Source of the DNA: Prorocentrum cordatum
Taxonomy: Eukaryota
Assembly: GCA_963575745.1 (NCBI GenBank)
Contig: CAUYUJ010000002.1
Coordinates: 1,736,001-1,800,000, forward strand
DNA: 64,000 nucleotides
Reading direction: 5' to 3'
How positions within the stretch are numbered: the first letter of the stretch is position 1; every line of letters starts with the position of its first letter. The notes beneath the pieces were generated by a model. The model did not search any database, was not told the DNA's origin, and was given only the letters and a program-made list of their open reading frames with translations. Positions 37,901-40,900 of this stretch are shown one piece after another. The position numbers and the translations under genes were made by a program.

Positions 37901-40900
37901 TGACAGTGTAAATCCTCAGGAAGTGCAGAGACACTTAATATACTCTCATGGTAGATGGCGCCGTGCCCTGGAAATGGCAATGGCTATGCGTGGTCATGAT
38001 CTTCCCCCGCCAGGATGGAATCTCCAGGAGCTGGGGATGAGGCCAAACCATACGGCCATGCGTAACATTGCTAGGCAGCCTATGCTCGTCGATGACCCTG
38101 AGCCGACGACTGTGCCTCCTACCCCAGGACAGCCGAGCGACGCCCAGACGCCGGCCATGCAGGGAAACCTGCCTTTACCAGATGCGCCAATGGCCATCAT
38201 AATTGGTAGTTCGATATCAGAAGAAGTAGAAGGCGATGGTTGTGGGTTAGATGAGGATGACGTCACCATCCTCATGATGGACGTGACTGGTGAGGAAGAG
38301 GTCGATTTCGACCCTGATGAGTCTGAATCATCATCACCATCGGCACAAGCGCCACTTGCGCCGAGCTCCACCCAGCAGGGGGACCTGCCTCCATCGAGCG
38401 ATCCATCTGGGATCGCAGAGGAGCCTCCTCAAGCACCTCCAACGGGTGCCGCTCCTGCTGCATCGGCAGCTTCTTCTGATGAGAACACCAGAAGATCTCG
38501 TTCCCATACGCGCGTCAGAGAAGAGCCACATCCCCAGGCTCGACTTCCTCGTGAGTGGAGACAGGCTGGCCCAAAGGAACACGTTCTCAGAAGAGGTGGC
38601 CAGCTACTTCCGCACAGCGACCCACGACGCCGAAAAGGGGAACACTCGGCCTTCGGCCAGGGCAATCCTGCCTATAGGGACGGCGATGGCAGGCCCATCC
38701 GTGGAGGCTATCAGCTTGCAACAAACATCCGCCGCCCTGAAATTCAAGAAGCGCGGGCCCAGTTGCGAGATATTACCGCCAGTTGCGAGATATTACCGCG
38801 GCTCGCAAGCAGTATAGGCCTCACGCTGCATGCGGTCCTTGTTCCCAGCCGTTCCAGAATCACAGGCCAGGATGCCCCGTTGGAAACAACGAAGGCCTGA
38901 GCCCCAACAGGGGCAAAACCCCTCCTAAAGAGGGCCATCCGCCACTTGACCCGATGACACCGGAAGAGATCGCAGTAGTGAATAGTCGTCTCGGGATCTT
39001 GGGCCACTTGGATCCGAAAGAAGAAGAGAAACCTACTCCGGCTCCAAGGGGAATGGTAGCCATGACCCAGGAAGAGAAAGACGCGCTCTTTAGTCTTCCT
39101 GGTATGCGAGGAAACTCGCCTGGCGTCTCTAGCCAGTCCCAACAACCAGAGCCGATCATCAAGGACGAGACAAAGGCTCAACGTGTGGCGGAGGATGAGG
39201 AGCGCATTCGGACAGTAGAAGAACGCACACGCGAGGCAACTCGCAAGGTGTTGGAGGATTCCAGCACGATCTACATGAAGGGGGCTAGGAAGCCCCCACC
39301 CCCACTAACTTCGAAGGCCAAGAGTGAACCCCCGACACCTAAGCCGTCTCCGGTGCCGAAACCGAAGGCGAGCTCTCAGAGCCCTGGGCCAGACGTGCAT
39401 ATGGAGGTGTCTCGATCTGCGACGCCGAGGCCGCCGATTGGCACAGCTCCTACACCAGCATCTGTGCCCAAGCAGCAACCTCAGGACCCCACTGAGGAAC
39501 GAAGACGTCCGCTTAGCCGCAGCAAGTCCATTGCGAAACGGGCGGCAGCTTTCGAGCGCAGTGGGTATGCACCTGCGCCAGCTTCGCCTGTGGCGGCTCG
39601 TTCCAGGAGGTCCGATGAAGGTGCTATGTCGAGGGGTAACTGGGTGCCGAAGATCAGGGGCAGCGCCAGTCGCGCATCTCCGCGGGGAAACCCGCCAGGC
39701 GCTGCCGCCGCAGCTTCCTCTTCTGGAGCCGCAGCCTCTTCGGCAACAGAGGCTCCGATGCGGGGAAACCCGCCAGTAGTTCAGCTGCACCACCCAGGAG
39801 ACACATCCTTTACTAGTGGGACTCCAGATCTGATTAGGGATAGACTTGCACTTCGGAAGCTCCCACCGATACGTTCGGTGGATGAGTCATTCATGAAGGA
39901 ATGCAGGAAGGCCGGAATTCTTCCCACATCCAATGATACTCTCAAAAAGTTTAGCAAAGCTCTCAGCAGGATATGTAGACATGCGCCAGATAAGCCACAT
40001 AAGTGTGGCGCCTGAGATCCTTTGATGATCATTATGGTTGGATTAACCTCGTGGAACTCGTGGCTGACTATCCGTGGAACACAGGTCACTCGAGGCACGC
40101 TGGACATAACCCAAAATATGACGAGGCCAAAGTCATTAGCGAGCAGTTGTATGGTCGCTCGGTTGACCAACTCGCAGCCATCATGATGGAAGTTGTTCAT
40201 GTTCGTGAACCAGACGGAGAAGAAAAACAGCGCCTTCAATTCAAGGTGCTAATGCGGGACTCCGGCGAGCCCGCTATCTTCATCCGCGCCTCTCAGGGGC
40301 ATTCATGGACATTGAAAGCTCCATGGTCGCTGTGCAGTTACATTGTACTGTGCGACGAACCCGCCGGGAGACCGGCCCCATACCCTGAAGTCGCCATGCA
40401 TGGCACTCGATGGCACGCTTTCGAAGGCATCATGTGGTACGGCCTGTCCTGTAGACCTGAGCACAACACGAAGAAAAGGGGGACAGGCCGTTCACACATC
40501 CATTTCGTGCCGACAGTGCGCCGCCGTGCCGTGAACAGTGGGTGGGACCCAGATTCAGACCTCATCATCTTTGTAGATTCGCGCAAGGCCATACAAGATG
40601 GTATGAAGTTCTGTTGGTCCGATAACGGAGTCCTCTTGTCCGAGGGAGATAACGGTATCATTGAACCGTATTACATTTCTCATGTAGAGGACCTGACCAC
40701 TGGAAGGCAATGGCGCAACCCAGAGTATTTGGGGAGCCGCCGTGCGCGAGTCTCTGTCAGTACGATGACTGCCTCAGACAGGTGGGTTGATGTTGGTAAT
40801 TCCAGCATTAAGTACCAGTGGTCCCGAGACCAAGAGGGCGTTGATCCAGCCATGGTCTACCTCCACAGGGACGTTGGGGACCACTACAGCCCCACCCAGC

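Follow-up and report, generated by a model that had tools for sequence, protein, structure and literature searches.

Cellular Tpt1/TRPT1/KptA proteins, the RNA 2'-phosphotransferases, are free-standing enzymes of about 180–250 residues, nearly universal yet dispensable in many organisms, and what they do outside tRNA splicing is an open question. Their catalytic tetrad, Arg-His-Arg-Arg, contacts the junction 2'- and 3'-phosphates (PMC6333775). Some viruses carry the enzyme as well: KptA has been described in jumbo phages, in sawfly nucleopolyhedrosis viruses and in the Bodo saltans mimivirus, and two positive-strand RNA viruses have it within their polyproteins; the same paper calls the protein absent or rare in eukaryotic viruses and leaves retrotransposons unmentioned (PMC9503650). 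Retrotransposons have captured other domains, namely DNA methyltransferases (DNMTs) in dinoflagellates and charophytes (PMC5890265) and methyl-CpG-binding domains (MBDs) in arthropod Copia elements (PMC6673714). Here we describe a Tpt1/KptA domain inside a 15.9-kb Ty1/copia-type long terminal repeat (LTR) retrotransposon, element A, on the plus strand of a 64,000-nucleotide stretch from Prorocentrum cordatum (contig CAUYUJ010000002.1, positions 1,736,001 to 1,800,000 of the forward strand); the whole stretch is called the window, and positions are counted from its first letter. Taken as a whole, the locus is probably best explained by a family-wide Tpt1 in a copia polyprotein, perhaps used to clear 2'-phosphates.

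Compared with these systems, the element form shares with the cellular enzymes the tetrad, the QGHS, HGT and S-x-N-x-V-L motifs and, in the model of a relative, the two-lobe fold. It differs in being embedded in a retrotransposon polyprotein, in a 10–12-residue insert before the fourth tetrad residue and in longer RNA-lobe insertions, and its identity to the cellular proteins is only ~30–45%. Like the viral cases, it is an instance of a selfish element with a KptA of its own, two of the viral proteins being likewise polyprotein embedded, but the viral carriers are DNA or positive-strand RNA viruses, whereas the carrier here replicates by reverse transcription. With the DNMT- and MBD-capturing retrotransposons, it has in common a host-type domain within the coding region that is kept across a family, the difference lying in what was captured, an RNA 2'-phosphotransferase. 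LTR retrotransposons that have taken up a host domain are of a known kind; Tpt1 as that domain is new. No description of a retrotransposon-borne Tpt1 was found in open-access papers and bioRxiv; the words Tpt1, phosphotransferase, KptA and RING occur zero times in the DNMT-capture paper (PMC5890265), and Tpt1 occurs zero times in an opinion paper on the accessory domains of retrotransposon polyproteins.

The domain and the part of it that lies in the second frame are placed as follows.

39941..40692, plus strand: Tpt1/KptA domain as originally flagged, split over two frames
40003..40752, plus strand: remainder of Tpt1, with a Pfam match of 70.7 bits and matches to TRPT1 in the PDB

The Pfam match is to PTS_2-RNA (PF01885; E 2.1e-19, cut-off 26 bits); it falls on residues 73–215 of the open reading frame (ORF) 40003–42672 and covers positions 59–177 of the 177 in the profile. 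The NCBIfam model for RNA 2'-phosphotransferase matched 40003..40752 at E 1.5e-5, far under its equivalog cut-off. In a sequence search of the PDB, human and mouse TRPT1 were matched (7yw3, E 1.9e-11; 7yw2, E 8.6e-10), and the TRPT1 structures reach E 2.6e-16 when searched with a profile. All four tetrad residues are present in the window copy: the first Arg (39977–79) and the His (39980–82) in a CRH motif at 39974–39982, the third (Arg, 40231–33) in a KQR motif at 40225–40233, and the fourth (Arg, 40489–91) in a GRSHIH motif. When aligned with 40 cellular Tpt1 proteins, the three motifs fall on the cellular LRH, KxR and RxHxH columns. Judged by its sequence, the domain at 39941–40692 is a genuine Tpt1/KptA, as the original prediction had held, and intact copies of it would be expected to act as an NAD+-dependent RNA 2'-phosphotransferase.

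The fold was modeled for a natural relative in place of the window copy: P0176, a protein of 284 residues that contains both lobes, in a 57-row alignment. With a mean predicted local distance difference test score (pLDDT) of 87.1 and a predicted template modeling score of 0.80, P0176 is predicted to fold as a two-lobe Tpt1, that is, a winged-helix RNA lobe joined to an NAD+ lobe. All 21 Foldseek matches in the PDB at E <= 0.001 were Tpt1/KptA/TRPT1 structures, in alignments of ~250 columns and with target-normalized template modeling scores of up to 0.77; the next row, at E 1.5e-3, was yeast Tpt1 (7yw4), after which E jumps to 0.03 and the probability falls below 0.15.

The closeness to TRPT1 bears on another possible use of the domain. 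Tpt1, TRPT1 and KptA proteins also ADP-ribosylate 5'-phosphorylated nucleic acid ends (PMC12678800, PMC10415124, PMC6582358), and the element's enzyme could be an end-capping ADP-ribosyltransferase that places ADP-ribose on the 5'-phosphate at the ends of its cDNA or RNA, which would protect these ends from exonuclease attack or end joining while the 3'-OH stays available for integration. The nearest solved relatives, by sequence and by fold, are mammalian TRPT1s, a group described as end modifying, and the ADP-ribosylation reaction uses the same tetrad; sequence, however, cannot tell the two activities apart, and the element contains no ADP-ribose-removing partner, neither a macro nor a NADAR domain, that Pfam or NCBIfam would recognize. 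To our knowledge, all characterized members remove 2'-phosphates, whereas capping is a side reaction of some. We consider end capping unlikely, though it is the main rival, and return to the removal of 2'-phosphates below.

The window copy itself is broken. Read in a single frame, 39941–40692 contains eight stops, and the two parts of Tpt1 lie in different ORFs: the N-terminal piece is in the frame of ORF 38741–40015, which ends in the stop at 40013–15, and the remainder follows the frame of ORF 40003–42672.

38741..40015, plus strand: low-complexity linker ORF, whose final 25 codons (39941–40012) encode the beginning of the RNA lobe of Tpt1
40002..40003, plus strand: break point, with four bases fewer than most other copies, as seen in contigs of four public runs and in one-frame relatives

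Contigs of the four runs (X1, X9, X4 and X2) were compared over 39700–42700, and the depth of the extra four bases after 40002 was 37.9 of 37.9 in X1, 4.29 of 4.29 in X9, 30.4 of 30.4 in X4 and 141.9 of 293.1 in X2. Among the relatives, P0157, P0169 and P0084 run from CRH or RRH to DGWINL in one uninterrupted frame. In P0157, the stretch equivalent to 39941–40012 matches positions 4–38 of the PTS_2-RNA profile (E 2.4e-5, 24.9 bits, which taken alone is just under the cut-off), and because of this N-terminal match, we conclude that both Tpt1 lobes are present in the family. The window copy thus has a private four-base deletion within the RNA lobe, and because those bases are missing at 40002/40003, the CRH pair is out of frame with the rest of Tpt1. 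The tetrad had been called apparently intact: this stands for the residues, all four of which are there, but not for the coding frame, which the deletion splits.

Further frame changes lie at 38741–38900, 42498–42672, 44846–45151 and 47025–47106, and there is an in-frame stop at 44043–45. These changes are probably damage. Programmed −1 frameshifting at the ORF overlaps was considered and is not supported, because none of the three overlaps holds an in-frame slippery heptamer. The window copy is dead as an insertion: its LTRs have diverged by 3.2%, its Tpt1 carries the deletion, and its frame is broken at several other places. Differences between copies fall 15/7/18 on codon positions 1/2/3 by a hand count of the 40 shown out of 429, a distribution that falls short of significance and that decay of the window copy also confounds.

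A second member of the family is found in the window.

1..10430, plus strand: element B, diverged, heavily frameshifted and cut by the window start, identified by tblastn against element A

Element B has a Tpt1-like region (1–387 and 290–1096) followed by a RING domain (1956–2414), in the same order as element A. The two elements are 31–65% identical in tblastn alignments across RING, the protease-like region, orf5, orf6, integrase, reverse transcriptase and RNase H. The Tpt1-like region of element B matches PTS_2-RNA at E 7.4e-5 with 23.3 bits, which is under the cut-off, and its first 129 codons (1–387) are 63% identical to the N terminus of P0176. The original prediction had named two outcomes that would speak against it, the lack of a PTS_2-RNA match, or confinement of the domain to one copy together with neutral evolution (a chance capture); in addition to the Pfam match, a second, diverged element and many database relatives carry the domain.

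Searching 1.84 billion representative proteins yielded 958 matches at E <= 0.001, the best of them being element type and the cellular Tpt1 proteins following at 30–45% identity. In a word-indexed database, the source name of all 29 matches at E <= 1e-5 was 'Pyramimonas sp.', and the 37 profile matches at E <= 1e-8 consisted of 31 from 'Pyramimonas sp.', three from metagenome assemblies (ENA, two; JGI, one) and three of cellular type. Going by these source names alone, the host would probably be a prasinophyte-type green alga; the assembly is deposited as Prorocentrum cordatum. No DNA relatives of the stretch were found in metagenome contigs or viral contigs, and no longer fused form of Tpt1 was found among proteins of 488–1556 residues. 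We group the copies into lineage A, the flagged copy and fragments 52–93% identical to it; lineage B, consisting of element B, P0011 and P0176–P0180; and lineage C, consisting of P0001 and P0012. The domain thus occurs in at least three lineages that are 27–46% identical to each other.

Across these lineages, the catalytic residues are largely retained. Among the rows covering the site, the Arg-His pair is kept in 4/4 of lineage A and 3/3 of lineage B; the third residue, Arg, is kept in all 15 matched rows of lineage A (and in two more by eye) and in 5/5 of lineage B; and the fourth, Arg, is kept in 12/12 and 5/6 rows, respectively. The 10–12-residue insert before the fourth Arg, GLSCRxE/DxNxKxxGxGR, is found in lineages A, B and C and in P0033, P0015, P0104 and P0014, and it is absent from the cellular Tpt1 rows. 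Because lineages only 27–46% identical keep the tetrad and share the insert, Tpt1 reads as a long-kept feature of the element family and not as a one-off capture in one copy. The opposite case would be a fragment of host TPT1, captured once and carried along, functionless and decaying. The broken state of the window copy and the many fragments without the conserved histidines are what such a passenger would leave, but the diverged lineages all have the domain in the same place with its four catalytic residues kept, the derived insert is shared, and the predicted two-lobe fold is preserved. As the tetrad is kept over a large divergence, a neutral passenger is disfavored, and we regard it as highly improbable.

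If Tpt1 is, as we favor, a working part of the family, its task may be to strip 2'-phosphates that block reverse transcription. We put this mechanism forward tentatively, giving it somewhat less than an even chance. Internal 2'-phosphates inhibit reverse transcriptases (PMC5824351, citing Schutz 2010; Dhungel and Hopper 2012), and in yeast, the plant/fungal-type RNA ligase leaves a 2'-phosphate at the joints (PMC5824351). In active copies, Tpt1 would be made with or next to Gag, and in a reaction dependent on NAD+, it would remove internal or terminal 2'-phosphates from the template RNA of the element or from the primer. Such phosphates would arise where a ligase of the plant/fungal type reseals cut RNA, and an element with a Tpt1 of its own would keep its cDNA synthesis from stalling. 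Processing of the tRNA primer or of genomic RNA, and capping of cDNA ends, had been suggested as possible roles in the original prediction.

Several observations weigh against the clearing of 2'-phosphates by a family-wide enzyme. The window copy cannot make the enzyme at all, and P0176, the relative on which the fold was modeled, has Ile at the fourth tetrad site. Outside the tetrad, 6 of 18 rows have Arg in place of the His of QGHS, 6 of 11 matched rows depart from H-I-H after the fourth Arg, and the His of HGT is Arg in 2 of 13; because conserved histidines are replaced this often, many of the sampled copies must be decaying, like the window copy. Pfam, NCBIfam and Rfam searches of the element turned up no RNA ligase, 2H phosphoesterase or ribozyme to link Tpt1 with a particular repair pathway. 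The scheme also presumes that green algae use the type of ligase that leaves 2'-phosphates. Lastly, a quick tree of 145 rows under a mixture model splits the element rows, placing A and C together (Shimodaira–Hasegawa-like approximate likelihood ratio test [SH-aLRT] 99) apart from B and four others, with a support of 95 for the separating branch.

Two other trees keep the element rows together. In a tree of 52 rows, made up of 14 element rows and 38 cellular rows picked across the large tree, all 14 element rows fall on one side (SH-aLRT 97), and in a fast LG+G4 tree of the 145 rows, they form one clade, LG+G4 being the model more prone to joining long branches. With the shared insert taken into account, we favor one capture and, after it, long vertical inheritance within the element family, though this is not settled. 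A separate observation concerns the substitutions themselves: in P0152–P0175, the His-to-Arg changes (giving QGRS, RIH or HIR, and RGT) are A-to-G changes at the second base of the codon, which may reflect sub-lineage variation, decay or editing.

A Tpt1 of its own that an element has kept through deep divergence would imply that reverse transcription in vivo is held back by 2'-phosphates, or by 5'-phosphate ends, on RNA or cDNA, and the element family would offer a system in which to test this. The finding also brings an RNA-repair enzyme into the small set of host domains that LTR retrotransposons are known to have captured.

The element that surrounds the domain is laid out as follows.

35222..35226, plus strand: candidate 5-bp target-site duplication TGAAT, left copy; the right copy is at 51156–51160 if the LTR ends one base earlier
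35227..35479, plus strand: 5' LTR of 253 bp, a direct repeat with 97% identity (8 mismatches over 253 in a local alignment)
35480..35491, plus strand: primer-binding-site-like TGGTAGCGGAGC, TGG led and directly 3' of the 5' LTR
35480..38900, plus strand: gag region, with a CCHC zinc knuckle (motif CX2CX4HX4C) at 37158–37199
42172..42327, plus strand: RING-H2 finger in the same ORF as Tpt1 (zf-RING_11, 30.6 bits, cut-off 27; zf-RING_2, 27.8 bits, cut-off 27.3)
42498..44045, plus strand: protease-like region conserved with element B, with LIDVGS at about 43146–43163 and the closing stop at 44043–45
44046..44846, plus strand: orf5, conserved with element B (33–44% identity by tblastn to 4193–5027)
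45151..47106, plus strand: orf6, an N-terminal part labeled 'MTase-like' (methyltransferase-like) and the HHCC finger of an integrase at 46840–46956
47025..50534, plus strand: integrase core, reverse transcriptase (HVDD at 49458) and RNase H (SDSG at 49914), 55–65% identical to element B
50904..51156, plus strand: 3' LTR, the direct-repeat partner of the 5' LTR

The order is thus gag (CCHC), linker, Tpt1, linker, RING, protease-like region, orf5, orf6, integrase, reverse transcriptase and RNase H, flanked by the 253-bp LTRs. The original prediction of an LTR retrotransposon is borne out by the LTRs, the candidate target-site duplication and a match of the reverse transcriptase to RVT_2 above its cut-off (36.7 against 31.6 bits); the predicted place of Tpt1 between gag and protease agrees with the zinc knuckle upstream and the RING and protease-like region downstream. 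The integrase HHCC finger (46840) lies upstream of the reverse transcriptase HVDD (49458), and because integrase precedes reverse transcriptase and RVT_2 is matched, we place the element in Ty1/copia. With that group it shares the LTRs, the candidate 5-bp target-site duplication, the TGG-led site, the integrase–reverse transcriptase order and the RVT_2-type reverse transcriptase; it differs from the usual Ty1/copia element in being ~3x as long, in having four extra coding regions (Tpt1, RING, orf5 and orf6), in lacking a polypurine tract and TG..CA LTR ends and in containing 34 GNRA hairpins. Next to the 3' LTR, where a polypurine tract would lie, the last 19 bases (within 50884–50903) are 17 pyrimidines and two G's. 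The 3' end of the LTR is ambiguous by one base, which affects the right copy of TGAAT. TGGTAGCGGAGC presumably resembles the sites of copia-type elements that are complementary to a tRNA 3' end (..CCA); there are no tRNA genes within the window.

That the domain might belong to a host TPT1 gene interrupted by insertions was considered and rejected: it shares one ORF with RING, lies inside the LTR pair and occupies the same place in element B. The match of zf-CCHC to the gag region (E 0.0013, 19.1 bits) is under the cut-off of 20.8, and the rve profile for integrase gave a weak match, in element B, at E 0.11. The protease reading comes from position and from a motif seen by eye, the region having no Pfam match, and orf5 has no Pfam, NCBIfam or PDB sequence match of note. 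The regions 44046–44846 and 45151–46800 are 33–52% identical between elements A and B. For orf6, the methyltransferase-like domain claimed in the original prediction found no backing, with no match in Pfam at E up to 10 or in NCBIfam and nothing below E 0.7 among PDB sequences; a weak Atlas language-model lead of 0.85 points to a cluster in which 12% of the members carry DNA_methylase, and the single-sequence fold, with a pLDDT of 30.7, is unusable. A REQP motif was seen in orf6 by eye. Just upstream of the CCHC knuckle lies a long Arg/Lys-rich stretch (36990–37160), a candidate RNA-binding arm.

The RING finger, by contrast with the methyltransferase, was predicted and is there: two Pfam RING models exceed their cut-offs, its C3H2C3 pattern starts at 42172, and about 450 low-complexity residues separate it from Tpt1 within their common ORF. 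Its presence raises the idea that Tpt1, together with a RING ubiquitin-ligase domain, is directed at the host as a counter-defense, restoring tRNAs or other RNAs cut in a nuclease response of the host or modifying host nucleic acids. By analogy, the viral KptA proteins speak for it, those of phages having been read as repairing cleaved tRNAs (PMC9503650), as does the occurrence of RING in the same ORF as Tpt1 in both elements of the window. No ligase or cyclic phosphodiesterase accompanies Tpt1 in the element according to Pfam and NCBIfam; more widely, RNA ligase, 2H phosphoesterase and macro or NADAR domains were all absent from the element in those two databases, and Rfam at E up to 1 gave zero matches over 35000–51400, with no ribozyme. 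We know of no host defense of this kind in the presumed host, and we regard counter-defense as rather improbable, keeping to an enzyme that would clear 2'-phosphates for the element itself.

The element has one more unusual property at the level of nucleic acid. The pattern GC-NN-G-GNRA-C-NN-GC has 42 matches on the plus strand of the window and none on the minus strand, compared with a mean of 0.03 when the base order of the element interior is shuffled. The middle stem pairs covary: 41 of the 42 matches have both pairs complementary and 36 have both Watson–Crick, with 12 stem variants, and the sequences fold into 5-bp stems closed by GNRA tetraloops at −8 to −10.4 kcal/mol. Thirty-four hairpins lie in element A (35696–50795) and seven in element B (1177–8719), with none elsewhere in the window. 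One of them is inside the Tpt1 coding region.

40363..40376, plus strand: GNRA hairpin encoding PAGRPAP, −10.4 kcal/mol

The hairpins occur in more than one reading frame, appearing in the protein as RGNxP in element A and AGQPA in element B, and also in the noncoding 3' end. Because they are found in several frames and in noncoding sequence, the hairpin is a nucleic acid signal and the recurring RGNxP peptide its shadow. They have no Rfam match. One hairpin has kept its position in both element B and a metagenome protein from JGI, and the contigs of X1 and X9 have 32–33 extra bases at 42558/42559 that include one more GNRA hairpin, which indicates that hairpins are gained or lost among copies. 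As the Arg-rich stretch adjoins the zinc knuckle of gag, our guess is that the hairpins are dispersed signals for Gag binding or packaging.

A bolder idea would join the two peculiarities of the element and make Tpt1 and the 34 dispersed hairpins one system, in which the RNA is cut and resealed, or marked with 2'-phosphates, at or near the hairpins and Tpt1 erases the marks before reverse transcription. The marking may come from the host, as a form of restriction, or from the element, as a means of switching between the translation of its RNA and its packaging. We offer this as a long shot; if true, RNA 2'-phosphorylation would be a battleground between host and retroelement.

The surroundings of the two elements contain a few further features. 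Just upstream of element A, on the plus strand at 33614–34708, lies what by eye seems to be a fragment of a putative host gene for the mitochondrial ATP synthase alpha subunit with intron-like interruptions, as would suit nuclear DNA of a eukaryote, and downstream of element A, at 52052–52246, is a CTC-rich simple repeat. Element B is followed by a long low-complexity stretch rich in His codons (10636–11600).

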